Below, piece after piece: positions 704-25,520 of a DNA stretch of 64,000 bases. The stretch's first letter is position 1. Every line of letters begins with the position of its first letter. Origin of the DNA: a virus. The stretch is taken from the IMG/VR virus record IMGVR_UViG_3300045988_122545, positions 31,662-95,661 of that record. One strand, 5' to 3'. Below the pieces are notes generated by a model. That model saw only the letters and a list, made by a program, of their open reading frames with translations, was not told where the DNA came from and made no database searches. The position numbers were made by a program, and so were the translations under genes.

Positions 704-1153
704 TCAAGCCCCTCCCAATACAGCTATATTGTTTACGATAGATACTTGATAGGTCTTGCTTGCTTCAATGGTATTGCTACCTATCCACTTTACGCTTTCA
801 GGTAGTGTCAAAGTAGTAGGAGTTGTTCCAGAAGTAAATTCAAACATATATTCATACAATTTATTTTCTTCTCCTGCTGCTAAAGTCAAAGTGAGTGTTT
901 CCATCTCACCGAAGATGTAATATTCATTCGGTTGTAATTCCTTTGTATTCTCTGATACATTTTCTACAGATACTTTATCAGCTTTTGAAGATAATTCTGT
1001 TTTAGTTGCTAACTATCCTACATCGGGAATATTATCTGCATTTGTGTTAACCCCATCGACTAGTTCGTCAATCTTCTGACTTATCTGATTCATTTCAGTA
1101 GCTTGTAATACTTGTTCTGAAATGAAAGTTTTATTTAATTTATTTATTGCCAT
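704..1153 (-). CDS. Tail-fibre-module protein (149 codons, 1 in-frame TAG)
   Basis: ORF 704..904 extends upstream in frame through TAG 1013..1015 to ATG 1151-1153 (MAINKLNKTFISEQ...). Ends on TGA. Confidence 0.55.
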
Positions 1154-1154
1154 A

Positions 1155-1532
1155 TTATCTTATTTTATCAATGTTTAGTTTACCTATATCTAATTTTAAA
1201 TACTATTCGATTGGAGAAGTTTCAAATAATATTGTAACTTTATCTCCTGACTGATTTAATTCAAATGTATCAGGATTAATATTATTGTCTGAATTTAGAT
1301 AAAATTCTCCTAATACACAGTTACCATCTATAGAATACAAATCAAGATGTAATATATAATCATTACTAGTTTTTAATAATTTACCTTCTATTCTACCAGT
1401 AGTATTAACTTTAAAACTATATGAATCTTCAGTAAAATCAAATGGTGTAGCCATTTGTATATATGATAATTCAGGTATAGTTAAGTATGCTTGTGGATTT
1501 ACGAATAAAGGTCTTGTAAATATTGATTTCAT
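1155..1532 (-). CDS. Hypothetical tail-module protein
   Basis: ORF 1203..1532 ends on TAG (1203..1205). Read-through adds 15 codons and stops at TAA 1155-1157, 1 nt before the next ATG (1153). Its ATG overlaps the TGA of the fibre gene (ATGA). Confidence 0.5.
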
Positions 1533-4396
1533 TTCTATATTAATTTTTCAAGTTCTACAATTCGATTCTATAGTTCTGCTATTTTTGCACATATTGCTTC
1601 ATTGTAATTAAGCATTTTGTGCTATCCATTATCAGATACCATTTCAGGATATATCTATTCCACTTCTTGTGCAATAAAACCATAAGAATGTCTTCCTGTA
1701 TTTTTCCAATCAAATTCTACTAACCTTAATTCTCCTTTTGGTTTTAAATCAATTATATTATCTTTTAAATTAATATCAGATGAATTTTGTACCCCATCTC
1801 TAGTTACTACAAACGCATTGCTTCTTGAAGTATGACTTGTTCCATTACCAACAACAAACAAATTATTAGTATCCGATGAATAATCATTAAATGAACCTAC
1901 TACAAATTCCTAATCATTTTTAGCAACGTTACCTTGTCCATTAGACATGCTCTATAAACCTAAAGCAAGGTTGTTTTTACCAGTTACCATAGATTGTTTT
2001 GCAAAAGCAACATGTATTGAATCGTTCTACTAATTATAAGTAGATTCATATAATTGTAATAATGATTTGGAACTATTAGGATAATCTATACTTAAAATTA
2101 TTCCGCCGCCACCAAATGCTACTGTAGCATTACCGTAAGATGTACAATTATAGCCTACTGCAATAGATTGACTTTCGTGTATAGTATTATATAAACCAAC
2201 ACAAATTGAATTATTACTATAATTTTCATTTAGATTGTTATAGTCACCAACGGTTATAGAATTTTTACCAGAAACATTATTGAATTCACCAATAATTAAA
2301 TAATTAACTGTTCCAGATTGATGGTTATTAGTAATTTTATTATGACCACGAGAAGTAATAATTAATCCTTCGGACGCATTATCTATACTATTTGTAGTAT
2401 AAATACCAATAGTAATATTATTACCCGATATTAACTTATCAGAAACTGTAATACTATATGTCTTAATATGATTAGCGGTTGTTACTCCATCATTGCTCAC
2501 TGATAAAGCATTCATTCTTCCTTTATACCAATCACTACCGTAACCTATTTGAAATAAAGCATCTTCTTCATATAAATTATATTTTCCAAATACTGTTTGC
2601 CCATCACCAGCAATTAGATTTTCTCCGTGAACAAACGAATTATTACCTGTAGCCTAACATCCATTACCACCTGTATGAGAATTCACACCATAAGCACAGT
2701 TATTTGTACCTTCGTGATGAGATGCAATACCAATAGCTGCTCCAAGTTTTGTTACAGGTTCTATTGTTATTTCTGTTGGAGTGATATGACTATCAGATAT
2801 TTCTATATTATCTGCAATATTTGGAGAAGTAGAAAAAAGTCTATCAACATGATCTACCTTTGTTACTTTGTATATAACGTCGTTACATTTAAATAACTCT
2901 CCTGCTGATAATACAAATTGAGATTCCGTAGAATCAAATATATATTGAACACAATAACTATTATAACTACATATTTTTAACTTGCGAGTTCTTAAAAAAA
3001 ATGGAGCTTCTACTTTTAAATCAACTTTACCTTCTGCGTGTGAACATTCACCTATTGCTTGGGTCAAATAACCTTCTACGTGTGATCTAGCCCCACTTGC
3101 TACCGTACTATCACCTTCTGCGTGAGATTTATTACCTGATGCAGAAGTATGATAATTTTCAGCATGTGAATAGATTCCTGTAGCATAATTGTTATCATAA
3201 TTATTAAATATTTCTCCTGTTCCGTTAGAATTTGGGTCTACTTCACCAACATTACTACTACCAGATATGGTTAAATCTCCTTCACCTAAAATCGACTAAC
3301 CATTTATGGTCTTAATATTAGTACCACTTACAAGTGTATTTTGTTTATTATCTAAAGCAATTTGTACCACATTAGATATTGGTTTATTGATATCTGATGT
3401 ATTATCAACATTTTCTAAACCTATCTAAGCTTTAGTTACATTATGTGGATTTAAAGTATTTCCAATATGAGAATCAGTTTTATTTTCCAAAGCTTTACCT
3501 CTAGCACCATCAAAGGCAGTACCTGTTACTTCTCCAATAACTGTAGGAGCTCCTACAACAGTAAATTGTGTACCAGTCCATCTAAATTGATACGCACTAT
3601 CACTACCAGTAATATCAACATAAATCTTTCCAGATTCTCCAGTTATCGCATTTTGATGTTCCGCATCAGAATATAATTTGATATTAGATAAAGTACCATC
3701 TTCTTCTTTAGAATACGTAGCATAACAATCTATTACATCATCTACATACGATGGTAATTGATTAGAAGGTATTAATCCTTGTTCATTCAGCGTGGCTATA
3801 CCGTTTGCAGTACCCATTTCTGAACGTTTTACTTGAGCGTCATTTGTTACATTAGAAAGACCTACTTGTTGTTTTGTAACATTATGAGGATTGTTTTTAT
3901 TATTTATATGCGATGTTAAATTACTTTCTATTTCAGTTATATTCTAACTTATCTTATTTTTTAAATCAGATAGAATAGATTGTAATGTATCAGTATCCTC
4001 ATAACCAGTTAAGAAATTTAAAATTTCATTATATTTGTCAATAAATTCTGAAGCACTTTCACCAAGTAATGTCTCTAGACTAGCATTAATATTTTCTATC
4101 TATTCGTTTATTGTATTTAAACTAGAATTTGTTTCATTCTTGTATTCTTCAAAATCTTCTTTATGTTGTAATAAATCATTTTCACATTCTTGTATTTCTA
4201 TAAGTAGTTCATCTAACTTATGCTTAAAACTAATGATTTCGTCATAAGTACGCTAATCGATTCTTTCCCATTCAACGCCATTATAGCATTTTATTACACA
4301 ACCGTATCTGTCTTCACTTAAATCAATCCAATATTCTATTTCTTCTGGTTTTGGAGCGATTGTTGAAGCTAAAAATCTAATTCTACCTATTACCAT
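1529..4396 (-). CDS. Long tail fibre with C-terminal peptidase-S74-type intramolecular chaperone domain (955 codons, 14 in-frame TAG)
   Basis: ORF fragments 1655..1861, 2030..2515, 2654..3067 and 3425..3817 share one frame and are separated only by TAG. ATG 4394-4396 lies 4 nt after the upstream TAA. Stop is TGA 1529-1531. In-frame TAG codons start at 4253, 4100, 3944, 3425, 3296, 2654, 2030, 2027, 1952, 1910, 1655, 1622, 1568 and 1535. Motifs: NPHNVTK.QVGL.NV fibre repeats, GNGTS...RSNAF, GFIAQEVE..YPE...LNYN (S74 chaperone). Confidence 0.8.
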
Positions 4397-4400
4397 ATTA

Positions 4401-4859
4401 TTAACCGTTAAATTCTACTAATTTTGTTTTATTATCCGTAGTATAAGCATCAACGTGAACCCAAGTTACATCTCGTTCCAATCTTATCGGATATTCAAAT
4501 TTATCAATATTAGAACGTATAAGATTTTTCACTTCTTCTGCAGACATATCATTAACAGTAAAGTCAATAGCTTTTCCTAATGAGTGCGAGCTTACATATA
4601 CCTTATTAGAATTAGTTTTATCTTTGCATAACTAACATATATTACATCTTAATCCTCTTTGTGTTAGATTATTATCATAAGAATTAATAATCATTGGTTT
4701 TTTGATTATTTGAGTACGTAATGTATAAATAATGCTCAGTAGTTCAGTTGAAATGAACTACCAAGCATTATCTCCAAAAGTATTAACACAATGAGGACAA
4801 ACTAATTCTTTCAACTAAAAATACTTTTTAACTTCTTTAATTAATTCGTCTCTTTCCAT
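4401..4859 (-). CDS. Zn-dependent cell-wall peptidase, M15 (VanY / L-Ala-D-Glu peptidase-like) family; 3 in-frame TAG
   Basis: ATG 4857-4859 to TAA 4401-4403 with TAG at 4815, 4758 and 4632. Motifs SSHSLGKAIDF (H..G.A.D) and WVHVD. No ORF-track entry because it is split into pieces shorter than 60 aa. Confidence 0.7.
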
Positions 4860-4863
4860 AATA

Positions 4864-5148
4864 TTATTCTTTTATTTCTTCTGCTGTTGGTTTATTTTCA
4901 TTAACAGTATCTTCAAATGCCTTTTGAACAAATGCTTTAAAACCTTTCTTAAGAATATCTTTTATTCTTTCAATCTGTTCATCTGTTAATTCAACTTCAC
5001 CGTTTTTATAAATATCTTGAGCTAAAATTAAATCTTCAAGATTTTGTGTTTCGCTATAAATAAAATTAGCTACTTGCTTAGAACAATCTAAAGGTAATTT
5101 ATTACCTTCAAGATCTGTCATCATTAACTGTTTAAAATTTATTTTCAT
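4864..5148 (-). CDS. Hypothetical protein (94 aa)
   Basis: Intact ATG..TAA ORF, tightly packed between neighbours. No TAG. Confidence 0.6.
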   Translation of the reverse strand: MKINFKQLMMTDLEGNKLPLDCSKQVANFIYSETQNLEDLILAQDIYKNGEVELTDEQIERIKDILKKGFKAFVQKAFEDTVNENKPTAEEIKE

Positions 5149-5161
5149 CGTTTCTTAATTT

Positions 5162-7282
5162 TTAACCAAAGTAATTAAAATACCATATTCCTTTTTTACC
5201 AGAACCTTGCGTTAATACTTCACTATAAACAAAAAATCCAGCCTCTCTACCACCAAATTGTACCTATGTAGCAAAATCACCGTCGCTAGCTCCTTCATTA
5301 ATACATATTGTAGTATTTCCTTTTGCTCTGACATATATCACACCGTGATAATTACCTTTTCTCACAATATACATTTGTCCTTCTTGAGGATTAGTTGGAA
5401 GATTTACACCAGTTATTGAATTACTTGTTACGTATACAAAAGTATCAGCATCGGTCATATTATAATATCCTTCACTATCTTTTTCACCACTTTGTAAATT
5501 ATATGTTGTCTTTACGTTAAATCGTAATCCTCGTATAAAACCAGATTCTATGTTTATAGCTATATTACCACTATAAGCAACATTGCTATATTTACGTCCT
5601 CCATTACAAGATATAAACAATCCAACGTTTTCATTCCAAGTAGCTGAAGAGTTAGATATATTTCTATATATACCTATAGGCATAGACATTCCTAAACTAC
5701 CTGGTAATACTCCTGAGCCGTCTGCTCCAAAACTAGCACGTATATCTCTATTACCTATATTTGATCTAAAATATAAACTGGATGATGATAATCGCATATA
5801 ATTACCAGATCCATTTGAACCAGAACTTAAACTACCAGATATATTAAACGCTCCTATATTACCAGAATTAATTGTTACATTATAAAATGTACCAGATGTT
5901 GCATTAACAACTCCTGTTATATTTGCATTCTTTGCAGTCATTGTTCCATCTGAAGTTACTGTAAAATTGTTACCCACCTATATCTGATTTGTCCATATAC
6001 CAATATCAGCTATAACTTTATCTACGTCAATCAGATTAGTTTTTATTTTACCACCTTCTATCAAAGTAACATCACCATCATCTGATTCTACTATAAGTTT
6101 AGCTTTTACTGTTAATAATCCTTTACCGCCATCTTCAGTAGGATCATATTTTACATATGATGTTGATTTATCTTTAGTACCTACATACATTCTACCATAC
6201 ACATTCATATATGCTTGTTGCTATGATTGAGTAGTATCGTAAGCCATTTCTATAATTGCTTTTCCGTCGGTACTATAATTATTTATTCCTTGATACATTT
6301 GTATTGCAGGAGCATTATCAGCGTAAGTAGTTAAAGATATAATATTCTATCTTTTTACATCATTCTTATTACCATACTATATTAATGTATCTCCCTCTAC
6401 AGGTTGTGTATTTGTACTAGGATCTACATCAGTTTTTGATAAATCTATATAATCTTCTCCAACGCCTAATACTTTACCCCAATAATATCTATTTTTAGCC
6501 CCTTCGTTTACTCCTTCAGCAACATTGAATTGTTGTATTTTAGCTAAGTCTCCAGCTTGAAAATCAGTTTTAATCTATTCTGTATTACCACCATCTTTTT
6601 CATCTTTATTTTTAAAATAACAACGATATACAGATTGATATTCATCTTCATATAACTGTGTAGTCTCTTCTACACGAATTATGTTATTACTTGCTGGGGA
6701 GATAACTAAATTTCCACCAATAGATGTAATTTTTTTGATTTCTAGAGTATTAAACATGGCTGCACCTCTAACAGCCAAATCATCCACCTCTATGTAAGAT
6801 TTACCGCTAGATTTTATTTTACATATAAAACCGCTACCTAAATCAGTACCTTCAGATGCATTTCTAGATTGAATATTATCGATGTATATAGTTTTCCCTT
6901 TATTGAATGTCAAACTTCCTTCAACAACATCATCATTTTTGGATGATACCCAATCTTCAATTGTTCTAGCTGCAGAATATACATTTTCATTAGTAGGACT
7001 AGTATCGTCGCCTATACCTATCACATATACATTAGATTCACCGCCTTCACCTGGCTAAAGTCCAATTTCATCATATTGGGCATTTTTCCATTTACCTGTT
7101 TTATCATAAACTAGTACGTCGTTTTCGGCAGGATACTATACACTAACATCTAATAAACGTGTAAGATATTTTGTGTTTTCAACTTTTGTATCTACACGAG
7201 CAATAGAGTCGGCAAGAGTATCCGTTTTTTCAGTAAGTTGCTAAACGGTATTTACTAAATCATTATATTCATCTTGTGTCAT
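5162..7282 (-). CDS. Tail spike/fibre-like structural protein (706 codons, 9 in-frame TAG)
   Basis: ORFs 5264..5977, 5978..6208 and 6575..7024 are in one frame and joined by TAG (7241, 7136, 7055, 6575, 6377, 6347, 6221, 5978, 5264). ATG 7280-7282 overlaps the upstream TGA (ATGA). True stop is TAA 5162-5164. Gly/Asn/Ser-rich beta-type sequence. Confidence 0.7.
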
Positions 7283-7512
7283 TTGTTTATATTTTTTATA
7301 AGTTTTTGAACTATATGCTGTTGTTCTTTAGTAAGTGATGCGTATTCCATAAACCACTGACAAAACGATGTACAGACATAATTTAAAATCTCTTCCGAAT
7401 TATAATTAATATTGTATTTTACAATTTGATTTAATTTCTTACCATAATTGTATAATTGCTCATCTTTTGTTGTATACACATGTCCCATTTTTGCAAGTAT
7501 TACATTCAACAT
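7279..7512 (-). CDS. Hypothetical protein (77 aa)
   Basis: ATG..TGA ORF. An in-frame TAA lies 9 nt upstream of the ATG. Stop overlaps the next start. Confidence 0.45.
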   Translation of the reverse strand: MLNVILAKMGHVYTTKDEQLYNYGKKLNQIVKYNINYNSEEILNYVCTSFCQWFMEYASLTKEQQHIVQKLIKNINK

Positions 7513-7984: not shown

Positions 7985-7995
7985 AATTAATAAAT

Positions 7996-8033: not shown

Positions 8034-8057
8034 AGAGTTATAAAGAAACTTTGAAAA

Positions 8058-9044
8058 TTATTTTTCTGCAGTACCTGAAATAAAGCTCTTTAAGTTCTTA
8101 TAGAATCGTGAACTTGACAAAGAACCTGATTTAACGTATACTTCAGTAGTAAGAGGAGTAGACTTAACATACTGATTATCACAGCTCAAGTAAGCATTAT
8201 CATTTTCAATAGTAAGATAATCATATGTAGTACCTTCCTGTACATTACGTTTCTGTTCAATTACTGGATAAGCATCAGTAAATACATGACCTTTATAACC
8301 CATGCAACGCATTTCACGGTCACGCACTTGCTTCCAATAACCTTTACCAGGATTACCATCAGTCTTAGTCATCGTCATACCAGGAACAGTTGCAGGAACG
8401 TTAGATAACAATGCACCAGGAATAGTTACATAGATAGAAGCTTCCATGCATACTACTGTATATTCATTAATAGAATATAATCCTTCATTATCATCTTTTT
8501 CCAAAGCTGTCAAAGTTAATTTCTTACTTAAACTAGTAACAGATACACGACGATTCTTATGAGCATTGATCTGTTTAGCAAAAGCATCACACAAATCCTG
8601 AGGAGTTTCTGTCTGAGCAATTACTTCATAAGTATGAGTAAACTGACCCGGAGCTTCATACAAATCTTTATAAACAATGCGTAATACATATCTATGACCA
8701 ATAACAATTTCTGCACTAGCCATATTGAACTCAATCTTTTCCTGAACAGGAGCAGAATAAGCCTGCATTACACTATTCAAATTTTTACCTTTTTGGATTT
8801 CATTAGAAAATTCGATTTCTTTCTTATCTTCCAATGCACCAGTTTGAGGGTTAACTACTTTCATAGTACCTTTGCAAACACCTACATAAACAGAGTTTGC
8901 AGCTGCTGATTTTGCACCATCAGTAAGGATATTTTTATTTTCATCAAACAATGCTACTTCACCTACATTCAAAGCATCTGCTGTAGAATAACTAGCTGGG
9001 CAAGCAGCATTTGCGATCATTACACTATCAACTCTTGTAATCAT
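8058..9044 (-). CDS. Probably abundant virion structural protein (328 aa), function unknown
   Basis: Intact ATG..TAA ORF with no TAG. GC-richer, biased codon usage. Followed by a strong terminator. Confidence 0.6.
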   Translation of the reverse strand: MITRVDSVMIANAACPASYSTADALNVGEVALFDENKNILTDGAKSAAANSVYVGVCKGTMKVVNPQTGALEDKKEIEFSNEIQKGKNLNSVMQAYSAPVQEKIEFNMASAEIVIGHRYVLRIVYKDLYEAPGQFTHTYEVIAQTETPQDLCDAFAKQINAHKNRRVSVTSLSKKLTLTALEKDDNEGLYSINEYTVVCMEASIYVTIPGALLSNVPATVPGMTMTKTDGNPGKGYWKQVRDREMRCMGYKGHVFTDAYPVIEQKRNVQEGTTYDYLTIENDNAYLSCDNQYVKSTPLTTEVYVKSGSLSSSRFYKNLKSFISGTAEK

Positions 9045-9152
9045 TTTTTAATTTATTAATTTGTTAGACTTCGCGCCAGTCTTCGCTCTATTCTTCTACT
9101 TTCCTATTTACTAAGTAAATTAATTTCCACGTCGAATAAGCGCATTAATTTA

Positions 9153-9881
9153 TTATTCCATTACTTGCGTTTCCTAAGCAAGTAAATTATAATTCTGTGT
9201 TGGTTTATTTGCCGCATATAATCTGACTGCTAATTTAACAATCTCCATATGCGTATGTGATGGCAATTCTGTATATTCCTAAGATAAATCATCATTAGTA
9301 AATATACCTTTAGGTTTGCTTAAATATACTAAATTATATTCTGCAACTTTATAATTACCATCTGTATATAAAACAATGTTGTTACCTTGAATCAATTTTA
9401 AAGGTCTTGCATAACAATGTTTTAATTTGTGTTCAGATAAAGAATTAGATAATTGTCTATCTATGGTTTCAATAGTTGATTCTAAAGTATCTACATTTTT
9501 CACTATATAATTGTTGTCAGAATCTTTCTTCCAGCAATCATTAATAATACCATCTGCAGGACTTATTCCAGCTGTATCTCCAAGTAAAAGAGTGTAATCT
9601 TCTGGAAGTTCTACAATATATTTAGGATTATTATTAATTATTTCTGTAGTATACTTTTTATTTCTAACTAAAGTACGTAAATCATCTATTCTCTTCTGTG
9701 ATTGTTCAAATCCTTCTTGTTTAGTATTTAAACCAGAATATCTTGTTTTCCAAAAAAGATCAATAGCTTCATTTAATATAGAAAACAACTAATCAGATGT
9801 TAACTTATTTTCAGCTACTAATTTAGCGTCATTCAATTGGAGTCTACGTTCCAATTCAATCTACATTTCACGTTTTGTCAT
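9153..9881 (-). CDS. Structural protein, connector-like paralog A (242 codons, 4 in-frame TAG)
   Basis: ATG 9879-9881 lies just after the upstream TGA (9883-9885). TAG at 9861, 9789, 9279 and 9174. Stop is TAA 9153-9155. The post-TAG tail ELPSHTHMEIVKLAVRLY is homologous to the C-terminus of the neighbouring gene. Confidence 0.6.
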
Positions 9882-9882
9882 A

Positions 9883-10590
9883 TCATTCCTCCATTTGAAT
9901 TAATTGACTCTTTGTTGAAAATCTTTGTGATTCTATATTTTCTAAAGCTAATTGTACTGCTCTATTAACAACTTCGTACCATGTTTGATCTGGTAATTCA
10001 CTTAAACCTAAATCAGATGGTAGATTGTTAATCAAACACGGATGTTTAACGTACGTTAAATCTAATCGATATTCATCCGCATTCATTGATATCGGATCAT
10101 AATATATTTTTAAAGTATTATTTTCAATAACACCAACTGGATTATCTATCCAAGGGATATTATTATTGGTCTTTATAAAATTCTTTATCTATGTATGATC
10201 CAATAATTTTACAGTAGCACAATTATCTTTTCCATCTTTAATCCAGTGAAATACAGAAGATACATAAAACATTCTTCCTCTATTGTTAGTCTATCTGTTT
10301 AAAAGATTTACTAATGACGCACAGTTCGTATTTTCACTAGCATTTAGTTTTAAAGACTCATCTGTTCTAATAAGTCTATCAAAATCAGAGATACGTTTTA
10401 CATCACCTTCAAATTTTACTTCGTTTTCAGTACCACCTGTAAACTTTGTCATAAGTAATGCATAGTATCCTTTATTTATCCAATAATCTATTTCAGCGTC
10501 AATAAATGCAGGTACACCACCGTATGCTACACTATTAGAATTTTTGTCTAATTCTACTTTAAAGGCTATATGTAATTCGTCTCTATTCAT
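9883..10590 (-). CDS. Structural protein, connector-like paralog B (235 codons, 2 in-frame TAG)
   Basis: ORFs 10291..10590 and 9883..10086 are in frame and joined through TAG 10291 and 10189. C-terminus is LSELPDQTWYEVVNRAVQLALEN. Confidence 0.6.
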
Positions 10591-10592
10591 TA

Positions 10593-11345
10593 TTACTTAG
10601 ATTTAATTTCTTTAAGTATCGCTAAATAAATATCTTGGTTCTTCTTATCTTTAAGATAAGCAATAACGTCATCAACACCATTACCGATAACATCTGTACC
10701 AAAATAATAAGTAGCTCTATTCTTTCTAATAATATTTTTACTCAAAGCTTCTTCAATTACAAAACTGTATTCTTTATCAGGATTTTCAATCCAAATACTG
10801 ATAAATTTGGCAGGATTCTTTTCTACGTTTTCTGTAAGTTTAGCTTCTACTACTTCATTAGACAAAGTATCTGATTTAACACCGAACAGACGTAAACATT
10901 TACGCATATCATCCAATGTCATCTTATCCAAAGCACGATAAGCTTCACGTTTAGTTTTATTATATTTATTCTGTTCTGTAGCTTCAAGATCTTTATCTAC
11001 GATTACATAATCTGTTTTAGGACTAATCTTACTTACTCCATCTGCAACGTGTTTATGATTCTTTAGAAACAAATATTGTAATTCACCTTCAGGAGTATCG
11101 GTGTTTATAATAAGTTCTTTTCTACCAATTTTAACAGCAAAAGTATCCCAGAAAGAACTATCTGGATCTAAATGACCCAACGGTAATCTCATTTTTTCTT
11201 CTAATTCTCTTGCTTTCTACGTAGTTAAACCTGTATATCTACTACCTGATCTAGTCCAATATGAACTAATAAAATCGAAGCATTTATCCCATTTAATCAA
11301 TCCTGTCCAAGGATTTGTTTTTGTCATTCTAACGATTACTTCCAT
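10593..11345 (-). CDS. Hypothetical structural-module protein (250 codons, 1 in-frame TAG)
   Basis: ORF 10593..11192 extends through TAG 11217..11219 to ATG 11343-11345. Ends on TAA. Confidence 0.55.
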
Positions 11346-11370
11346 AATTATATTTAATTAGATTATCTAG

Positions 11371-12453
11371 TTAGTTATTAATAATTTCTTTTACCCAGTA
11401 ACCAGTAGGCATTTCTCCGCCTAAGTATTTTTTAATGGTTCTGAAGTCAGATCTTAAATATTTTTCTAAAGCCCTAATACCTTCTATTCTGATAGGAGTA
11501 TCAGAAAGTGTAGTATTGTGAACTTCAAATATTCTGATTCTTTTTGTTGCAATAATATCTCTTAATTCTTTATAGTCTATTACTTTTCTATCTTCTTCTT
11601 TACCGTACTTCCAATTAAATCTTCTACGGATTGCCGGAACTTTATTTATATACTCTGGGTCATTAATATATTTTCGTATAGTACAACCAGAAATACCTGA
11701 TGCTTTGGATGCGTCTGAAATACTACCATATTTTGCAATTAAATTACCTTTTAAATCATATTGTTCTACGGGAGTAGATAAACCATTCATGTCACCATTT
11801 TCGACTATTCTTAAAGCTCGTTTGCGTTTGAATTCTTCAGATTGTTTGGGAACATAATTTAAATTCATGTAATAGTCTTTTATATTTATTTGTAATTTGA
11901 TATCTTCTCTGTTATCTGGAGATAATATCCAAACATAAGGATTCTTTTTAGATGGTTTCATCGCTTGTTTACGAAGTATTCTGTAAATAGACGTTTTAGA
12001 TATGCCAGTATCTTCGGATGCTGCTTCTATACTAGGATATTCTTTAACAAATATACCATTTACGTCATATTGAAGTATAGGCTTTCTGTTTTCTGAAATT
12101 TTTCCTCTATGAAGAATACCTATTTTTTCTTTAGTTTCATCTGATTGAAATCTAACTCCTCCGCCTAGCTTGTTGTTATATCCTATTTCAGGATTGGTTG
12201 CACCAAGTAAAACTATCCAATAATTCTCACGCTCGTTCATATGAGCTAAATCTTTGCATAGTTCAATAGTTTCTATTTTAAAATTATTTTCGCCATACTC
12301 TCGTATTGCATTGCAGATAGCCGTTGTGCCACCACCATTTGCTTTAATTACGTGTCTTCTAAATCTGTATGACGCGCCTTCAGTAGTGGCACCAACGTAT
12401 ATCTTGTTATTAACCAAATTAGTCAATTTATAAATTTCGTAGATCTTTTCCAT
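11371..12453 (-). CDS. Free-standing GIY-YIG homing endonuclease with repeated HTH (NUMOD/IENR-like) DNA-binding modules
   Basis: IYKLTN..KIYVG...YRF..H...NYW motifs. Two repeats, S(I/E)xAS..TGIS..(S/T)I.R. 360 aa without any TAG. Confidence 0.8.
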   Translation of the reverse strand: MEKIYEIYKLTNLVNNKIYVGATTEGASYRFRRHVIKANGGGTTAICNAIREYGENNFKIETIELCKDLAHMNERENYWIVLLGATNPEIGYNNKLGGGVRFQSDETKEKIGILHRGKISENRKPILQYDVNGIFVKEYPSIEAASEDTGISKTSIYRILRKQAMKPSKKNPYVWILSPDNREDIKLQINIKDYYMNLNYVPKQSEEFKRKRALRIVENGDMNGLSTPVEQYDLKGNLIAKYGSISDASKASGISGCTIRKYINDPEYINKVPAIRRRFNWKYGKEEDRKVIDYKELRDIIATKRIRIFEVHNTTLSDTPIRIEGIRALEKYLRSDFRTIKKYLGGEMPTGYWVKEIINN

Positions 12454-12524: not shown

Positions 12525-13991
12525 TTACTCGCTTAGCATGATAAGTTCTCCGCAAGCTCTAGGATCTCTAAGCATTATACCCATTTCACCTAAGAAATGA
12601 ACAGAATAGCCATCCTTAGCATTACTACGAACTTCAGTATTAGAATGAGCGTAACCTGCAGGAGTTACAGAACCAGCCGTACACCAGTTAACGAATTCAC
12701 GGTCTTTACGAACAACCTTAACAATGTTAGCTTCACCATCACGACGACCAAGGTCAAGGAATGTCATACGATATGATTCCAACGGTTTCAAAGTAATCGG
12801 ATGCAACTGACGGTTGTAAGTAGTATTGTCATACAACGGGAAATACTTCAAAGTAAGTTCAATACCGTTAGACATCTTATAAGTCTTGAACTGACCACCA
12901 AATGTCAAATTGTCACCAGAACCAGTTACGAATACAGTATCGATAAGATTCATGTTAGCCATCTTTTCTTTCAATACTCTATCGAACTCACGCATACCCA
13001 TTTCACCAGTCAATGCAACAAACTTACGTTCGTTAGTACCAAGTACATTGTATGACAAGTCTGACAAGAAATCTTCGAGCAATTCAGCAGTCAAACGAGT
13101 ATAGAAACGTCTGTTAGACGGAGCAATCTGTTCGAGCAAACCAGCACCGATAAATACCGGACGACCGTTAGCACCTTTCAGATTACAAGAACCATCACGG
13201 TTAACATTACTTACATTATAAACTAAAGCACGTTCAATACGCTTATACCATTCACGCATAGCAACCCATTCCTGGAATGTAGACCACAAATAAGAAGTCT
13301 TACCTGATTTAGGATCTTTCAAAGCAACTGCCATTACAGTAGAATAAGCTGAACCAGTAATATCATAAGAAAGACGTACTGTCGTAAGATAGTTACGCAT
13401 CTTGAAATGAGTATTATAGTTCAGGATATCAGCCTGTTCACTATATTCTTCGTATGCAGAAGCAAGACGAGATACCTGACAACCTGGTTTTAAAACAGAC
13501 GGATCAATATAAGATGCAGGATTACCATTAGAAACAAATACAGTATAAACATACAAGCTACCATCCTGATACGGAGCATCTGATACACGTACCTGGCTCT
13601 TGTCATCAAGTTCCAAAGTAGCACCCGGACCAAACCAGTTATCTTCCAACCACAACTGAATCGGAGTGTTGTTCAAACCAGCAGTAGTAGTATCTGAAAT
13701 GGTTGCGCCATTCCATTTTGCATCACGGATTGTAACTGCACGATCCTGATCAATCATTACACCCCATTCGAAAGAAGGCTGATCGATAACCATTACGTTA
13801 CCAAGACCACCAGTAAGCATATCCAAAGATGTTGTGTAACCATTATCTTTTGTACCAAATACGTATGATAAAATAGTTGATACTTCATACGGTCTCTACT
13901 GTGAAGCGATTGAAATTTTATTAGTATCAATCAAATCACTAAACCATTTTCCTTTATAGAGGACTAAATTATTTAGAATATTGTTATCCAT
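12525..13991 (-). CDS. Major capsid protein (HK97-fold type, 488 codons, 1 in-frame TAG)
   Basis: ORF 12525..13826 begins at an internal TTG. The frame continues through TAG 13896..13898 to ATG 13989-13991. Size, strong codon bias and position (scaffold-like gene upstream) fit a crAss-type MCP. Ends on TAA. Confidence 0.7.
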
Positions 13992-15194: not shown

Positions 15195-15204
15195 AATTAA
15201 CATA

Positions 15205-16665
15205 TTAATTAGATTCGTTATTATTCTCAAAATACATTGCAGCTCCAGGTATACTCAACAAAGGTATCTTATTAAACCATTTGGTGTATTCTCCAGGACT
15301 ATTAAATTGTAAGTATGCTGCTCGAACAGCATTCATTTCTGACGGTAAAGAGTTTATTGCTCTTTTAATAGTTTTAGTTGTTACTTTCTATCCTGGTCTA
15401 TCCATTAATCCTATTGACTACACATAACTACGTAATGTATTCATATAAGATTTCTATTCAGTTCCTTGTCTAAAGTAATCTGTTTTATCAGGATATAAAG
15501 GATTACTATCTGTAGATAAATCTCTACGTAATGCACTAAACATATTATTGTTATAATCAGCATTAGCGTTTTGAGACAGATTAAAATCTACATAATGACC
15601 TAATTCATGCTATGCAGTAGGTCTATCAATCCTATCCAAATGAGGAGATATATTATACTCAAAATCAGTATATCCTGCAGGTATCTTATTCATTCTAAAT
15701 CTTTCCATAGCATCTTTTCTAGCTGCCATTTCAGCTTTAGCATCACCAAAGAACTATTTAGCTTTCGGTTCAGGTAAACCTGTATATTTATTTTCATAAG
15801 TATCCAGAACGCCTTTATATATTTTAGTGTAATCGTCTCCGTATTGTTCATTTATTGCTCTAGCACGATCCCAATAATCCTGATCAGTATATAAATCTTC
15901 TATTACTCTATTTCTCTGATTTATTGCATCAGTATAAACATCTCTGCTTAACCCATTTGGTCTTACTTCTCTTCCTAATACTTTATTTATTTTATCACTA
16001 AAATATTTAGGATTAACAGAAGGTATTTCCCTAACAATCTTTTTTAATGGCTTCGATATTGCACCAGGTAATAATGCTGCTGCACCAATCAAACCAGCTG
16101 TAATATAATCTCCTTGACTAGCACTCTGATATACATCATTTGCTGTTATAGCATTTCCAACAGGAGTAAGATTAGCAGCATCTTGAATAGATACTACTGG
16201 TTTTAAGAATCCTGCTCCAGGATTATATCCGTAATTCCATTTACCATTTGAATATGTTACTGGTATTTCTGATGTATTTGATTGAATACCGTCTGTACCA
16301 TTTGCGTATCCACTTATATCTCCAGTAGGACTATATGTTTTAGTATAAGTTACCCCATTCTTTTCATACGGAAAATATCCTGCAGCTGCATCATTCTATA
16401 TAGCTTTATTATAAGTAGAATGAGATTTCGGTTTTAGAATTTCACCTGTATATGGGTTTCTGCTACCTAAATGATAATATCCATCTTCATTCAATTCTGG
16501 TTTCAATCCTCCAGTATAAGCTCCAAAATTATTGTATTGCCAATCTGGAGTATGAGCTAAATTATCTGGAAGAGAATTCTTCCATTCCCAGTAACTCAGC
16601 TAGGGATTAGATTCCCTAGCTTGTTTGAACTGGTCCATTCTCTATCTAAATTCACTTCTTTCCAT
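15205..16665 (-). CDS. Virion-module protein with HExxH (HELGH) zincin motif (about 486 codons, 8 in-frame TAG)
   Basis: ORF 15754..16092 extends both ways through TAG (16642, 16600, 16396, 15754, 15610, 15454, 15418, 15388) to TAA 15205-15207. Start is ATG 16663-16665 or 16636-16638. HELGHY lies just after TAG 15610. Confidence 0.55.
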
Positions 16666-16828
16666 AACCACCATTTAATAATCTATCTGCTAAAATATTT
16701 GCGACAATGTTCATAGTAAAATCATTAGCGTTTTCTTCTGGTGAATTTAAACGTCTTGATATTTGAGTAAGAATTATATATATTTGTTCTAATAATTCTC
16801 TATCACTTAATTGGCTTAGGTTTACCAT
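16652..16828 (-). CDS. Hypothetical small protein (58 aa)
   Basis: ATG 16826-16828 (MVNLSQLSD...) lies within ORF 16652..16837. Ends on TGA. Confidence 0.4.
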   Translation of the reverse strand: MVNLSQLSDRELLEQIYIILTQISRRLNSPEENANDFTMNIVANILADRLLNGGYGKK

Positions 16829-17153
16829 AACTTCCAATCTTTATATATTTTAGCCATGAATAATGCTTTCGTTCTTTGATATAGTTTAGATTGTCATCAT
16901 TATCGTAAGCTTCACGTTCAAATGATATATTACGATAAGCATTACCTTTCATAAATAATCTTATGACCCATTCTATTATATACCATATATAAAATAATAT
17001 ATAAAGCATTTCTTTCATCTATGCGGTATGAATAGATTCATGATTAATTGTTTTATCATCTATTTTACTACCTTTTCTAGCAAACAATACACCAAATAGA
17101 TTTATTGCTTTAAAACCTGGGAATGGTATTATACTGTTAAATATTACTTTCAT
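16803..17153 (-). CDS. Small HExxH zincin-like protein (116 codons, 1 in-frame TAG)
   Basis: ORFs 17019..17240 and 16803..17018 abut in frame across TAG 17019..17021. ATG 17151-17153 is preceded by AGGAGG at an 8-nt spacing. Motif NHESIHTA*M. Confidence 0.55.
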
Positions 17154-17229
17154 ATTATTTACCTCCTTTACCTTTTCCGCCTTTTCCTTTTTTAGAACCA
17201 CCTTTACATGCCATATTATTACACCTCCT

Positions 17230-19725
17230 TTACTTCTCACCTGCGACCTTATTCTTGATTGCGGTACGAGCTTTTAATTTTTCACGTTCCATTGCAGCAT
17301 CATTATTCATCTTTTGAAGTTGAGTTTCATGCTTCATACGGTCACGTTCCAACTACATCTTTTTATTTTCAATTTGTTTCTTATTCTCTGAATCTCTTAA
17401 TTTAGCATTAAGCTCCATTTGTTTTGCAGATTCGTCTGCAATTTGTTTTCTTTCAGCCAATGCTTGTTGTGCAATTTCCATTACATCAGGAATACCATTA
17501 TCATTCTGATCTAAGTCTTGTAAACCTTTATATGCATTTAATTGTGCAACAGTAATCTTAGTTTGAGAATCTGTATCAATCTTATACTTTTCTAATTCGA
17601 GTTCTGCTTCTTTAAGCATAAGTTCTTCTTCTTTAACTCTATTCTGTTCAGCAATCAATTGTTGTTGAGCTTCCTGCTCAGCTTGTTGTTGCTGTTGCAT
17701 TTGTTCCATACGTTTCTGTTCAATATCTTCAAGTCTATCTTTAATCATATTAATGTTATCCATTGTAATAATTTCTGCGATATCTAACAGGCTTGCTCCA
17801 TTTTGCATAGCAGGTTGTAACAACTGTTTTAACTGATCTAAGTCTTGTCTATTCTTTGTACTATCTTCTACAAACACATCCATATCTGAATAGAAGAAAT
17901 CATCTGATAAAGTAATGAAAGCTCTAGTAGCATCATCTAAGATATAGTTAAGACATGTTTTATTATCTTTCCATGCTACCTTAGCGGTATCCAATAACAT
18001 TGTTAAAACTTCTTTTTTGACCTGATTGTGTGTCCAAAACCACGGTTCGGTAATATGATACGACTGAGTAATAGCTTGTGTGGTATTACCTACCAATTCG
18101 CTTGCCGCAATGGATCCTTGTCTCTGTGGAGTAATACCAGTCAATTTGGCTACCATATCTTCAATCTTAGCCATAAGATTAACATACTGATCAATTATAT
18201 TAGCCATACTTAAATCCCATGACTGGAACTGATTAAATGCTGCTGGTCTACCACCTTCTCTACCCGGAACATCCCATCCTTCTTCATAAGGATTGATAAA
18301 TGCTACACCTAATGCTCCTAAGTAATGCATCCATTTGTTTACATCAATACCCATAGATTTCGGTATCTGAGTAACATCTACTACAGGTACTTTACCTTTA
18401 TCTCTGGACATAGCCAATTCTAATCGATACCAAACTACAATATACATATACTGTAACGGTTTCATCATACTGACCAAAGATCTAGGTTTACTATTAGTAT
18501 TATTATAAAGTACACCAGTATACGGTAATTTTGATGAATTAGGATTATCTGCAGATATGTGTTGATATTCCAAAGGTTGAATTCCGATATATAAATCATC
18601 ACCAATTCTATAACCTTCCCATACTTCTATAATCCATTTCCAATCAACAGATTCTTCTTCACCAGTTACTTTGTAATCTTCATCTACTTGATATTCTTCT
18701 ACTTCTCCAGTTTCTTCATTTATCAAAGTAACAAATCCAATCTTCTTAAAAGATTTCCAACAACAATGATAAACTGTAATTTGATCGGTATCAAATGGAT
18801 TATCAGTAAAACTATTCAATTTATGAAGTTTTACGTGATTATAATCCAATTCGGATTTACCTACTTGAGGAGTCATACCTGAACCTGGTTTTTCATCGAT
18901 TAATTCAAGTAACTCGTTTAATTGTTTTTCTGACATCTTATCATAGAAGCGATCATATATTTCTGTTGCAGACATAATCATCTTTCTACAACACCATGCT
19001 GCATCGTGAATATATTCCAAATCTACAGATTTTTCATAGTCGAAATACATCGGATTAACTCTTTCTACATAAGGTTGTCCGTTACGAATACCAACATAAT
19101 ATATTTCCTCGCCACCGATTAAAGCATCTTTCCATCCTTTATAAAATTCGTGAGGAAGATTCAATTTACGTTTCAAATACTATAATGTATGATAAGCTGT
19201 TCGTTCTGCGATATCTTTGTAATCTTTAGTTAAATACTTCTGTATTGCTTCTGGTTGCATTACTTCACCAGTTTGTAAAGCGTCTTGATATCTTTGAGCA
19301 TTCTCTGGACTCAATTTAGCCATTATACTAGACTGTATATAGTCCATTAACATTTGTTTAGCTTTCTCTTGCAATTCACTAGTAGCTTCATCACTAGTTC
19401 TACATACTTGAAAATTAAATGAACGTTTTGTTTCTTCACCTAATAATTGGTCGATATAAGGTTTAATTATATTATAATCTTGAGCTGTTGCTGGAAATCC
19501 ATCTTGTTGTTTAAACGGATTAGTAACATATTTCAAATCTCTTTCATCATATATACTATTATAAAGATCATAATATGTTTGCATTTCCGAAGCTCTCTCG
19601 CTATTAAAACCACTATGACCAGTATTACCAGATCCTGCTATATAATCAACACAAGCTTCTTTCCAATCCTAATTCTTCTTAGACATTGGTAATTTTTGTG
19701 GTGGAAATGATTTTAAATCTTTCAT
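17230..19725 (-). CDS. Portal protein (831 codons, 3 in-frame TAG)
   Basis: ATG 19723-19725 lies 2 nt after the terL TAA. ORFs 19180..19584 and 17353..19176 are joined through TAG 19669, 19180 and 17353. True stop is TAA 17230-17232. Size, position after terL and a Q/E-rich C-terminal coiled coil fit a portal. Confidence 0.7.
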
Positions 19726-19727
19726 AA

Positions 19728-22700
19728 TTAATTAGTAAATGTATATACATTATCATCGTCAAACTTTACTGGACTTTCGTCATCAAACCAATTTTGCGCA
19801 AATATTGGTCCATCAAAAAGTAAACGACTCTTATTTTCTTTTTCTTTTTCTTTTACTACTACATTAAATAATTGTTCACGATAAATCATTACCTACATCA
19901 GAGCCATGACTCTATCGGTATTTATTATATCGTTGTATGCAATTAATTCCTCTAGTAATGGTTCAGATAATATGTTGTATAAGTTCTTTTTGCCATCAGC
20001 ATTTATATCATTCAACCAGTCTTTTATTAATCCTTCACCCCAAGCTTTAATTGATTTATTCATATGGCAACCTTTCTTTCTCTGTACTTTAGAATTACCA
20101 ACAATATCATTGATTATATCTGGTTGATCTGCTAGTAAATAATCACAATGTTTGTTAGCAAAGTAAACGAATAAGCCTTTATTCTGATTTTCATACATTG
20201 CTCTGGCATTATAGTATATCAACAACTTACGAACATTTTCGTAGAAATCATCTGCTGCTTGAGGTCTACCAGTATATTCTGCAACAATTATATCTGAATA
20301 AGATTCTATATTCTATATTCTTTTATATATGATACACGAACCTAATGAATTTGTTCCTGACTAATCATGGTCATATGGGTCAATTCCTGCAATATATAAA
20401 CCAAATGGTGCATCTTTCATAGGATGTTCCCATATAACTATAGAACCAGTAGGATCATCATCTTTATTTAGAGGATAATGTGTAATATCTCCTGTCTTTT
20501 TAATTACCCAACTAATATTTCCATCAGGTGTTTGTACTAAATCACCTATTTGTTTATGATTCTATAGCTGTTTATTTGTACGTATTCTAGCCAACTATTC
20601 CTATAGCTCTTTCTTAGGAAATATGTTTCCTCCAAATTCCAAACAAGCTTCTGCTGGAGTAATACATCTTTCACAAACATACCTATCTACTGCTACTGAA
20701 TTAGTAGCATTTTGTATCATTTCTTTACGTTGCTCCAATATAAAATCTAGAGAAGGTTTACGTAATGTATTACCATCATTATCCATATAAATACGATTAC
20801 ATTTATCATCTCTAATATCCATATTAGCGTACTATGGTATAAAGAATCCACACGTACTAGTTACTGCATTTTCATCCCATATATTCTATAATTCTACACA
20901 GTTATATCCTTTTGGTTTATAGAACATATCTTTCAATGTAGCAAAGTTTGATTCTTCATCTCCACCAGTATTATGTGTTACAATACCATTTACAATATAA
21001 TTATGCTGTTCTTTAGCAGTAATGTTATATATATCTTGTATACCGATATCTGTTATATTTGTGATTTTATCTGCAACTATTCCACAAAGATATTTATTAT
21101 ATTTTGGTAACTCGGACTGAATAAATAAATAAATTAAATCCAGTGCTGCTGATTTTCTAGAAACTGTTAATTTTATATGTTGAGAAAATCTACCTAGACT
21201 TACCACATCAGCAATTTCTAATCGATATTCGCCGTTTTTATCAGAAATAAAATGATCCTTGTATTTCCTAATTCTATTAGTAGGTTTAATATAACGAATA
21301 ATCCCATGTATACCAAAATGCAACAACGCTTCTTGTACCTAAAGTAATATGTCTTTCTAACACTACGTTAATACTATTCTGGCTCGTTTTTTACTAAAGT
21401 GTATGTACCCATCAGTATCGTATAATCCGCCAATTAATTCACTTATTGTATATTCATCATAACTATTGAAATCTATAGGCAGACGTTTATTACCTTTAGT
21501 TTGTCCATATATACCTAATTTTCTTAGCTATTTGCATATTCCTTTTATACGGATTTCTTGATAATTCTTATTATCTTTAGTAGTATATTGTTTTTCAATA
21601 ACTGTATCGAAATGAGAATGAACATAATCTAATATTTCCTATTCGCAATTACTTAGTATGGGCGTTTTATTATTTCCATAGCTTCCGTCGCCTATTAACC
21701 ATCCTATAAATCTAGGTTCCCACATTACGTTTTTGCCAAATATAGGGATCTAATCTATCAAACCTACTTGGTCTCCTATTTTACATTTTTGTGCTTCGTG
21801 CCATAACCAAGACTTCATACGTTCGTTTTCAAATCTTTTTCCAGAAACACGTTTTGTCCTACCAGGAGTAGACCATAATAAAGGATGGTCTTTACTACAT
21901 CTTATTGTTCTACCCGATTGTAATTCTATTTGAACACATTCTTTCTATGATATCGGATTAATGTTTTCTATGTTTTGTATAGACGCCTGATAGGTATCCC
22001 ATCCAATTATACCATCTTCTTGTTTTAAATTCTCTATATTAATACAATTACCGTCTGATGTCCATACTCTAGATCCTTTGCACACACATCCAAATGCTAT
22101 CATGGTACCAAATGCTACACCATCAACTTCAACAGACGGTCTAGCAATTTGCCATGCTGCACCTAATTCTTTAAATGAACCAGCTTCTTCGAATAAGATT
22201 AGTTTTGCTTTCTTACCACGGACTATATCAGGATTATCCTTAAGAGTAACACCAATTATTTCTGATTTATAACCTAATTCTACTTCATTACCAAATTCAT
22301 CTTTAGTAAAGAATCCAGCTCTTTTACGCATTGCTGTATTAACAGATCTTTTCTTACCCCATGCAGTATTCTTATCGATAAAGTCCATGTAATCCCACGC
22401 TTTAGTAAGAATACCATCATCTGTTAAGTATTGTTTATTTGAAGCATATACATAGGATTTAGAATTAGGAATAAGGTAGTAATTACGACATAACATAGAA
22501 CCACCTTTATAACTATTATGAGTGGGTATAAAATCTTTTGTTATATATAAATGATTTTCGTTATCGATGCATAAGCATCGTTGTTTTTCAAATTTGCCAG
22601 TTCTACGAATTGCTTTTATTCCGATACCATTATAATTATACTTTCTATCTTTACGAATTTTCTCCAATTTTCTAGGAAGTTTAAAGATATCTTCTTGTGT

Positions 22701-23948
22701 AGTAATACACAATTCCCAATGAGGTAAAGTATTAGATTTGCAACCGTTATTAAATTCTACTCCAAATCTACCTTCTATTTCTTTAGATTTGTGACATCTT
22801 ATACCGAGACTTCTTAATACAAATTGTAAATCATCAATTAATTGTTCTGAAGTTGATACGAACGTAGAAGCGCCATTTGTAATGCTACCGTCAGTATCCA
22901 TTAAACCTCGTACCAATTCAAATCGATTTTCAACAGAAGTGTATTTGTAATTTTCAGGAATAAATTTTTTATTTGCTTTTACTTTTATTCCTAATTTTTT
23001 TAATTCTCTATTTAAATTATTATGTTTTTTATCTTTTGATATTATTACGTAAGCATATTTATCGGATTCTATTTTTTTAATAATATAATCTGGTAATCTA
23101 CGTGATAACTCTTCTACGATAAATTGATCGGCTGTAGAAAATCTAACTTGTGATCCACATATGTATCCATCTCCTAGTAATACACCTAATACATAAGGAT
23201 CAATGTGTATTGGTTTTTCATCAAATCGTAAAGGATTTATAGCAGGTACTTTATAAGGATAATGCTCTTTTCCTTTTGAACCTTGTGTTAATTTGCGTTT
23301 AGCATATTCTTTAGTAGGCATTATATAAAATTTCTTACCGTTTCTGCACGTAGCCCATAAATGATTAGCTCCGCATCTAACAACACGACCATCTTGAAAT
23401 TCAACTTCGTATACTTCTTGAATACCTTGTTCTACAATATCTCCAATTTTAACAGGACTACCGTTAGGATTCATTACCATATCACCAACTTTTAAAGATC
23501 CCATTTGAACAAAACCGTTCGGCGTTAATACTTCTTCAGAATAAGGTTGTTCATATCCTTTACGTCTACTTTTAAGTACGCATAAATGCTTACCTGATTC
23601 CTCAGCATCCTAGATGGTTTGAAAATAAAAATAGTCGTAATCCCAGAAATCAGGGAATGCGACTTCCTAGACAGTCACGATTTTATCTTTACCATGTCTG
23701 TCTTTTATCTTCTTATTTACAGATCTATTAATAGGACAAAAGTTTAAATAGAAATAATTATAACCACTAATCCAATCTCCATCTTCTGCTGTATATCCTT
23801 CCAAACATCTACGTTTCTATTCATCCCAGTAAGAGAAATATTCTGAAGTATTAGATGCATAATTACAGTATTTACCTGTCTATTCAAACGTAATAGCTGG
23901 TTCTCTGAATTTATTACTATTTGCTATTTTTTTATTAAAGTCTACCAT
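19728..23948 (-). CDS. terL: Terminase large subunit interrupted by two inteins (1406 codons; about 690 extein codons; 19 in-frame TAG)
   Basis: ATG 23946-23948 to TAA 19728-19730. One frame links ORFs 21945..23504, 20886..21326, 20601..20822 and 19893..20225 with only TAG between them. Extein motifs: VLKSRRKG (P-loop region), LILFEEAGSF (Walker-B-like), and MIAFG/TGGDEE restored on removing intein 2. Confidence 0.8.
20970..22088 (-). mobile_element. terL intein 2 (373 codons), class-1 with LAGLIDADG endonuclease; contains 7 in-frame TAG
   Basis: Starts at Cys (CVCKGSRVWTSDG) right after MIAFG and ends ...GIVTHN followed by T(GGDEE). LAGLIDADG motifs FIGWLIGDGSY and LIGGLYDTDGYI. TAG at 21945, 21750, 21639, 21528, 21363, 21357 and 21339. 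Confidence 0.75.
22515..23552 (-). mobile_element. terL intein 1 (about 346 codons) with LAGLIDADG endonuclease; class-3-like; no TAG
   Basis: Ends ...DFIPTHN followed by S(YKGGSM). N-terminal block EQPYSEEVLTPNG aligns with the canonical C.SYETEILT..G block but lacks Cys1, so the boundary is uncertain by a few codons. LAGLIDADG motifs VLGVLLGDGYI and LVRGLMDTDGSI. Confidence 0.65.
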
Positions 23949-25513: not shown

Positions 25514-25520
25514 AGTTTCT

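Follow-up and report, generated by a model that had tools for sequence, protein, structure and literature searches.

The late genes of a crAss-like phage, carried on a 64,000-nucleotide (nt) stretch of DNA (positions 31,662 to 95,661 of the IMG/VR record IMGVR_UViG_3300045988_122545; the whole stretch is called the window below), are very probably written in genetic code 15, in which the amber codon TAG means glutamine (Gln, Q), only TAA and TGA terminate, and a phage-encoded tRNA with the anticodon CUA, tRNA(CUA), does the decoding. The phenomenon is already known, and the window is one more genome of a well-documented type. CrAss-like phages that read their late genes in code 15 and carry suppressor tRNAs have been described (PMC7886860; bioRxiv 10.1101/2021.08.26.457843), and in two crAss-like phages TAG = Gln was confirmed by proteomics (PMC9523058); a preliminary description of the window, which had mentioned amber reassignment in such phages, was right on this point, and the genome cr6_1 is annotated likewise. 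What our analysis adds to that description is the Gln identity of TAG, the recoding of 61140..63953, the absence of TAG from the early and middle genes, and the suppressor tRNA adjoining the terminase gene terL.

Judged from its gene content and sequence similarity, the window is that of a crAss-like phage (Crassvirales, Suoliviridae, near Afonbuvirus) and holds about two thirds of a roughly 98-kb genome. The Crassvirales hallmarks, namely a crAss major capsid protein (MCP), a portal and terL, are all present by Pfam, PHROG and synteny with cr6_1 (NC_055894), which is the nearest annotated genome in a DNA match, with 78% nt identity over these three genes. An IMG/VR locus termed L002 here (UViG_3300045988_097163, 98.8 kb) is 96–98% identical to the window over the 21 kb fetched. 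The G+C content of the window is low (~30%), and the sign of the GC skew flips near 32 kb and 61 kb, which sets the plus-strand block at 32–61 kb apart from the minus-strand block, at 1–32 kb and from 61 kb onwards.

In-frame TAG codons in the late genes

Genes were called on the minus strand of positions 704 to 23948 with only TAA and TGA as stops and without nested frames. This yielded 20 abutting genes, 14 of which contain in-frame TAG codons (71 in total, or 69 if the tail fibre starts at the ATG at 4396, which sits just past two TAGs). The preliminary description, which took TAG as sense across the late operon, had counted 14 TAG-containing genes and 69 TAGs, and both numbers were borne out; of the 21 genes it claimed, 20 were found. 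Recoding within its range of 704 to 23948 stood as well, but the range proved too narrow, since a second recoded block lies at 61140..63953, also on the minus strand, where a gene of 937 amino acids (aa) contains 15 in-frame TAGs. All 20 called genes end in TAA or TGA, as had been stated for the TAG-containing ones, and the junctions lie where they had been placed: ATGA at 1529–1532 and at 7279–7282, where the ATG of the tail-fibre-like gene 5162..7282 overlaps the TGA of the gene upstream, and TAATTATG at 19723–19730 (TAA-TT-ATG) between terL and portal.

Reading TAG as sense raised the fraction of the region covered by open reading frames (ORFs) of at least 60 aa from 0.687 to 0.987. For ORFs of at least 100 aa the coverage was 0.962, compared with at most 0.063 in 200 shuffles. 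The TGA-sense and TAA-sense codes brought almost no gain (0.695 and 0.739, respectively) and were rejected. Among the 8477 codons of the late-gene frames we counted 84 TAG, 0 TAA and 0 TGA; of the TAG, CAG and CAA codons taken together 23% are TAG, and every stop is TAA or TGA (19/19).

Under the standard code (code 11) the same region falls into 30 ORFs (60 aa or longer), of which 18 end in TAG, and the fragments listed in the preliminary description are indeed present: four in the fibre (1655–3817), four in terL (19893–23504) and two in the portal (17353–19584). They could be taken for separate small genes, pseudogenes or assembly errors in a phage that keeps the standard code. However, the frames are interrupted by TAG alone, the fragments are collinear with single proteins in hidden Markov models and in 81 relatives, and reassignment of TAG alone gives a coverage of 0.99, which the shuffles never approach. 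Profile alignments were followed across the TAG positions and do not break there (Crass_capsid, PHROG 6681, PHROG 894, LAGLIDADG_3 and Intein_splicing), and the relatives, in place of separate genes, have continuous ORFs with CAA, CAG or TAG. Codon counts, coverage, profile and tblastn alignments together refute the standard-code reading, to which we attach practically no probability. Standard-code annotation is, as had been warned, wrong for most late genes: it breaks up terL, portal, fibres and endolysin, and code 15 restores them.

Recognisable domains continue across TAGs, as had been noted for the terL exteins, the M15-type endolysin and a zincin-like motif. Without its inteins, terL (687 aa, 12 TAGs) aligns with the terminase large subunit family PHROG 6681 in a single stretch (14–659, E 1.6e-151) that crosses 11 of the 12 extein TAGs, and the Pfam matches to LAGLIDADG_3 and Intein_splicing extend across several TAGs. 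The Crass_capsid match spans MCP residues 3–485, across the TAG at residue 32, where relatives have Gln (n = 55) or TAG (n = 6) and L002 has CAG. Portal residues 19, 182 and 791, each TAG in the window, are mostly Gln in relatives. The PHROG 894 match of the endolysin spans residues 9–137 and crosses all three TAGs; its Pfam Peptidase_M15_3 match is weak. In the 489-aa virion protein, for which no Pfam or PHROG family matched, the zincin-like motif HELGH comes directly after a TAG. Genes of cr6_1 that are syntenic with 8058..12453 are annotated as read-through coding sequences (CDSs).

TAG is sense in late genes only. The 9 middle and 28 early genes contain no TAG in 7278 codons and end on TAA or TGA, the coverage of the early region is not changed by TAG-sense reading (0.786 against 0.798), and the early/replication genes are readable in the standard code. 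In the last early gene (60640..61143, plus strand) a TAG stands seven codons ahead of the TAA; it may act there as a terminator, the sole candidate of its kind in the window, in which case late suppression would append a 7-residue tail.

For the meaning of TAG, 81 related loci were compared by tblastn with the window proteins translated with TAG as X. Columns of window TAGs lay at least 10 residues inside the high-scoring segment pair (HSP) in 2042 of 2168 cases, and all 81 loci carry in-frame TAGs of their own (inside HSPs, 3157 TAG vs 29 TAA and 6 TGA). Opposite window TAGs the relatives, 80 phage contigs, have Q (577) or TAG (519), then E (150), D (147) and T (143), and some columns, for example terL 1039, 1212 and 1352, hold Q or TAG exclusively. 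A likelihood test drew on the 33 TAG columns in which 10 or more relatives were informative and asked which of the 20 amino acids of these proteins has the residue profile most like that opposite TAG; Gln was best and Ser second, at −23.9 nats. The window and L002 have 36 TAGs in common (of 39 comparable window positions), and all eight TAG differences between them are exchanges of TAG with CAG or CAA, the direction of which could not be polarised with outgroups of ~80% identity except at MCP residue 32. As judged from these alignments, the evolutionary equivalent of TAG is Gln.

A long-armed suppressor tRNA beside terL

The suppressor tRNA is the only part of the finding that could teach something new. 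ARAGORN detected a tRNA(CUA) of 89 nt on the strand of the TAG-free middle genes, which precede it; the terL ATG follows 266 nt further downstream. Its acceptor and T stems form a 7/5 stack with C1-G72 and A73, the D stem has 5 bp and a CGAU tetraloop, the stem of the variable arm has 6 bp, and the anticodon loop reads CUCUAAA; CCA is not encoded. Its length and variable stem depart from the canonical class-I body of tRNA-Gln (~72–76 nt, with a variable loop of 4–5 nt), and its C1-G72 departs from the weak 1-72 pair with U1 of E. coli tRNA-Gln. Rfam matched it to tRNA-Sec only, at 33 bits (gathering score 47), with the general tRNA model silent, and that match aside returned only sub-threshold noise in the neighbourhood.

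These calls raise the question whether TAG could be read as pyrrolysine (Pyl), or as selenocysteine (Sec) through a Sec-like tRNA, since ARAGORN gives the label 'tRNA-Pyl' and the Rfam match is to tRNA-Sec. ARAGORN, however, labels any CUA anticodon Pyl, and a tRNA-Pyl would be expected to show a short variable loop, in place of the long variable arm, with a compact D loop and accompanying pylS/pylBCD genes. As to Sec, 33 bits fall short of the gathering score of the family (RF01852), the anticodon is CUA and not UCA, the stack has 12 bp (7/5) and not 13, and residue 73 is A and not G. TAG makes up ~1% of late codons and is aligned with Gln, not with Lys or Cys, and no pyl or sel genes or domains turned up among the window proteins scanned. 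Score, fold, anticodon and Gln alignment led us to reject both readings, whose probability we regard as negligible.

A tRNA(CUA) is present within the fetched locus in 68 of the 81 relatives, and 66 of these 68 are 73–78 nt long and start with U1. It lies upstream of terL in cr6_1 and in the loci L002, L084 and L193. The long form was found in three IMG/VR contigs, in L193 (a crAss-like contig binned in a 'Bacilli' metagenome-assembled genome, with a long tRNA identical to the window copy), in 15 metagenome contigs, many of which come from ~100-kb contigs, and in the RefSeq genome cr113_1; wherever the fetched locus reaches terL, the long tRNA is upstream of it. Among six distinct sequences of the family there are compensatory changes at all 7 acceptor pairs and at 2 anticodon-stem pairs (pair 1-72 is C1-G72 or, in two of the six, U1-A72), 97% of the cells of the alignment are paired, and the observed covariation was reached in 0 of 500 shuffles. 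Essentially no variation is seen in the T arm, at A73 or in the CUA anticodon, nor in the variable arm save for one internal pair of its stem; the D arm (tetraloop CGAU or CGGU) is also invariant in the six variants, which is ascertainment, as the pattern used for the search came from this arm. Covariation of this kind marks the 89-nt tRNA(CUA) as a real, constrained tRNA. A scan of contigs with the 16-base D-arm pattern, which is too short, gave at least 120 chance matches and one real copy (L193), and no bacterial origin of the long tRNA was traced by it. In the literature we found no description of a long-arm suppressor tRNA in phages.

The window and L002 are collinear and ~97% identical on either side of the suppressor slot, which is bounded by the small ORF at 24478.. 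and by the hairpin preceding terL. In this slot L002 has a 73-nt Gln-like tRNA(CUA), and the window has the 89-nt tRNA(CUA) and a second, decayed tRNA. Since so similar a locus carries the short tRNA at the same site, the swap is recent. Directly upstream of the suppressor, the window, L002 and L193 share a conserved inverted-repeat element (TAGACTTTA..GG..TAGTCT.TAAAGAAC); because it precedes the tRNA in all three, the tRNA body is the exchanged part, and the element may serve the cassette as a promoter or processing signal. The second tRNA is homologous to the tRNA-Gln(CUG) of L193 (L193 1557–1627) and keeps its acceptor, D and T arms, but its anticodon loop reads CAUAGGG, where the intact L193 gene has CUCUGCA, and one stem pair is lost. 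It was called by neither ARAGORN nor Rfam in the window and is probably a pseudogene. At least six unrelated-looking tRNA(CUA) alleles (73–78 nt and 89 nt) occur in loci L002–L081, at 77–85% portal identity; the suppressor appears to have been replaced often among related loci.

In the mechanism that we propose, the early and middle genes, being TAG-free, could be translated by an unmodified host. The tRNA(CUA), whose gene closes the TAG-free middle block at its 3' end, directly upstream of terL, would then accumulate and, once aminoacylated, most likely by the host glutaminyl-tRNA synthetase (GlnRS), compete with release factor 1, and this suppression would let full-length late proteins be made. 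What we infer here is the role in timing, the enzyme that charges the tRNA and the residue that the window's tRNA inserts. GlnRS reads C34 and U35, and many foreign tRNA bodies with a CUA anticodon get glutaminylated; the 89-nt tRNA would for this reason insert Gln, which is the least secure step. No aminoacyl-tRNA synthetase or release factor was found in a scan of the larger early and middle proteins of the window, beyond which lie about 34 kb of the genome.

Several observations weigh against a Gln-inserting tRNA(CUA) that serves the late genes. About 60% of the residues facing TAG are not Q, and many TAGs stand at positions that vary and put little constraint on the residue inserted. The suppressor is not Gln-shaped, with its long variable arm and a D arm like that of Sec or allo-tRNAs, and it has C1-G72, compared with U1 in the 66 short suppressors of related loci. 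Charging by GlnRS is deduced from the comparative data and not from identity elements. In addition, a terminator-like hairpin (23970..23989) separates tRNA(CUA) from terL.

A class-II-bodied suppressor that was swapped in might also have left TAG as a sense codon but turned it into Ser, Tyr or Leu, or made it ambiguous. Such a change would fit the 89-nt length, the 6-bp variable-arm stem, the sole Rfam match (tRNA-Sec) and the recent exchange at a site where the 97%-identical L002 has a Gln-like tRNA, and the class-II amber suppressors supD, supF and supP usually keep Ser, Tyr and Leu identity. The comparative data nevertheless make it improbable. The long tRNA occurs in three separate clades, and most of the 15 metagenome contigs belong to one of these, whose portal is only ~67% identical to that of the window; 84 TAG columns of this clade mainly face Gln in short-tRNA relatives, Q accounting for 42% of residues and for the majority in 36 of 83 columns, against 2.9% S and 2.0% Y. 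A short-tRNA control was indistinguishable (Q majority in 108 of 292 columns, mean Q 0.34), which suggests that the odd tRNA leaves the meaning of TAG unchanged. At MCP residue 32, a conserved Gln, the window itself has TAG and L002 has CAG. The tRNA body also speaks against such a change. Leucyl-tRNA synthetase (LeuRS) uses the G18G19 pair, and bacterial tRNA-Tyr is unlike C1-G72 (E. coli identity rules); the D loop of the long tRNA is without the G18G19 pair, against LeuRS, and its C1-G72 argues against bacterial tyrosyl-tRNA synthetase. Seryl-tRNA synthetase, whose recognition relies on G73 or U73 plus the variable arm (PMC5389517), is opposed by the A73 that is invariant in the long-tRNA family.

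We put forward, tentatively, that the 89–91-nt tRNA(CUA) family, found in crAss-like phages only and beside terL, specifies Gln despite its class-II shape and is exchanged as a cassette with ordinary Gln-type suppressors among genomes that are almost identical. It seems less likely that the long tRNA carries another amino acid and that the meaning of TAG is shifting in the lineages that have it. If confirmed biochemically, Gln insertion by this family would bear on the permissiveness of GlnRS and on phage-built suppressors charged by host enzymes, and the long tRNA might be a scaffold for engineered amber suppression in Bacteroidales.

Gene layout and further features of the window

The features of the window are collected in Table 1. 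Inteins account for part of the length of terL. Intein 1 is precisely missing from the 97%-identical L002, which points to a recent invasion; its first residue by alignment is Glu, not Cys, Ser or Ala, and its C-terminus is the canonical HN followed by Ser. The protein encoded by 61140..63953 matched no Pfam or PHROG family.

Table 1. Position, strand and in-frame TAG content of features in the window.
Feature	Position	Strand	Length; in-frame TAG	Basis or remark
Small late gene	704..1153	-	1 TAG	TAG-sense gene call
Small late gene	1155..1532	-	1 TAG	TAG-sense gene call
Tail fibre with C-terminal S74 chaperone domain	1529..4396	-	14 TAG from ATG 4396	Pfam Peptidase_S74, 892–939
Endolysin (M15-type peptidase)	4401..4859	-	152 aa; 3 TAG	PHROG 894, E 3e-19
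Tail-fibre-like protein	5162..7282	-	706 aa; 9 TAG	PHROG 38044, 17422, 496 (tail fiber)
Structural gene	8058..9044	-	0 TAG	TAG-sense gene call
Structural gene	9153..9881	-	4 TAG	TAG-sense gene call
Structural gene	9883..10590	-	2 TAG	TAG-sense gene call
Structural gene	10593..11345	-	1 TAG	TAG-sense gene call
GIY-YIG homing-endonuclease gene	11371..12453	-	360 aa; 0 TAG	Free-standing, between MCP and next structural gene
MCP	12525..13991	-	488 aa; 1 TAG (residue 32)	Pfam Crass_capsid, E 1.8e-206
Virion protein	15205..16674	-	489 aa; 8 TAG	Translation and aligned relatives
Portal	17230..19725	-	831 aa; 3 TAG	Pfam P22_portal; start 2 nt past terL TAA
terL	19728..23948	-	1406 aa; 19 TAG	Two inteins; exteins hold 12 TAG
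terL intein 2	about 20970..22088	-	7 TAG	Starts with Cys; common to window and L002
terL intein 1 (LAGLIDADG)	about 22515..23552	-	346 aa; 0 TAG	
Terminator-like hairpin, then T run	23970..23989	-		Between tRNA cassette and terL ATG; conserved in L002 and L193
Decayed second tRNA, probable pseudogene	24078..24145	-		Homologue of L193 tRNA-Gln(CUG)
Amber-suppressor tRNA(CUA)	24215..24303	-	89 nt	ARAGORN
Inverted-repeat element	24305–24345 (L002 6075–6111; L193 upstream of 1781)	-		Conserved in all three
Middle-gene block	24478..31338	-	0 TAG	Upstream of tRNA(CUA), same strand
ThyX-domain protein	26401..28302	-		Inside middle-gene block
Early/replication block	32413..61143	+	0 TAG in 5596 codons	DnaB-like helicase, primase, AAA ATPases
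937-aa gene	61140..63953	-	937 aa; 15 TAG	TAG-sense gene call

Three Hatchet ribozymes (RF02678; 34523–34685, 34797–34921 and 36672–36800, plus strand) lie where the plus-strand early block begins, not far from a tRNA-Leu(UAA) at 34371–34457; their scores are 69, 94 and 91 bits (gathering score 51). Two further elements of the same strand resemble tRNAs. The first (40034–40159, Rfam 53 bits, missed by ARAGORN) carries in its anticodon loop an insertion of 57 nt, much too short for a group I intron, and its anticodon may be UCG. The second (40458–40525, Rfam 44 bits, fold z-score −3.0) has normal acceptor, D and T arms; since its anticodon arm is a perfect 5-bp stem with a 3-nt AAA loop, it cannot decode. 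Within the replication block, ~1.95 kb at 45104–47053 are free of ORFs in all frames and codes tried, with slightly raised G+C content. This stretch matched no Rfam family, is conserved only in short patches with unannotated regions of cr6_1 and cr115_1, and may represent an origin or a large non-coding RNA.

Comparison with known systems

The closest annotated system, cr6_1 (NC_055894.1; Suoliviridae, Bearivirinae, Afonbuvirus faecalis), agrees with the window in gene order (terL, portal, scaffold-like gene, MCP, GIY-YIG endonuclease, structural genes, fibres, endolysin), with the GIY-YIG gene at the position of window 11371–12453, and its late CDSs are annotated through in-frame TAGs (for example 14 in its terL and 11 in its portal). 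Its terL is intein-free and 686 aa long, compared with 1406 aa in the window, and the TAG positions coincide only partly. A tRNA(CUA), annotated as tRNA-Gln, lies upstream of terL as in the window, but a homing-endonuclease gene stands in between, and this suppressor is a 74-nt class-I tRNA with U1, whereas that of the window has 89 nt. L002 differs from the window in its 73-nt Gln-like tRNA(CUA), in lacking terL intein 1 and in the eight exchanges of TAG with CAG or CAA.

Code-15 crAss-like and other gut phages use Gln for TAG, confine recoding to structural and lysis genes, keep their replication genes compatible with the standard code, encode their own suppressor and have a low G+C content, all as in the window, which is no different in kind from the systems of Yutin 2021 (PMC7886860), Borges 2021 (bioRxiv 10.1101/2021.08.26.457843) and Peters 2022 (PMC9523058).

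For the long tRNA, the nearest counterpart is the 91-nt tRNA of cr113_1 (NC_055896.1; Suoliviridae, Loutivirinae, Buchavirus coli), which RefSeq labels tRNA-Gln. It belongs to the same long-arm family (92% identity) and lies upstream of terL with one small ORF between, but its acceptor stem differs from that of the window tRNA and the phage is of a different subfamily. The allo-tRNAs and tRNA-Sec-like tRNAs likewise combine a long variable arm with a long D stem that a tetraloop closes; some of them occur in phages, and some are nonsense suppressors (Mukai et al. 2017, PMC5389517). Allo-tRNAs, however, have an 8/4 or 9/3 acceptor/T organisation, mostly G73 or U73, and Ser identity (PMC5389517), while the window tRNA is 7/5 (or 6/6; an eighth acceptor pair would be U:C), with A73 invariant and the CUA anticodon fixed.

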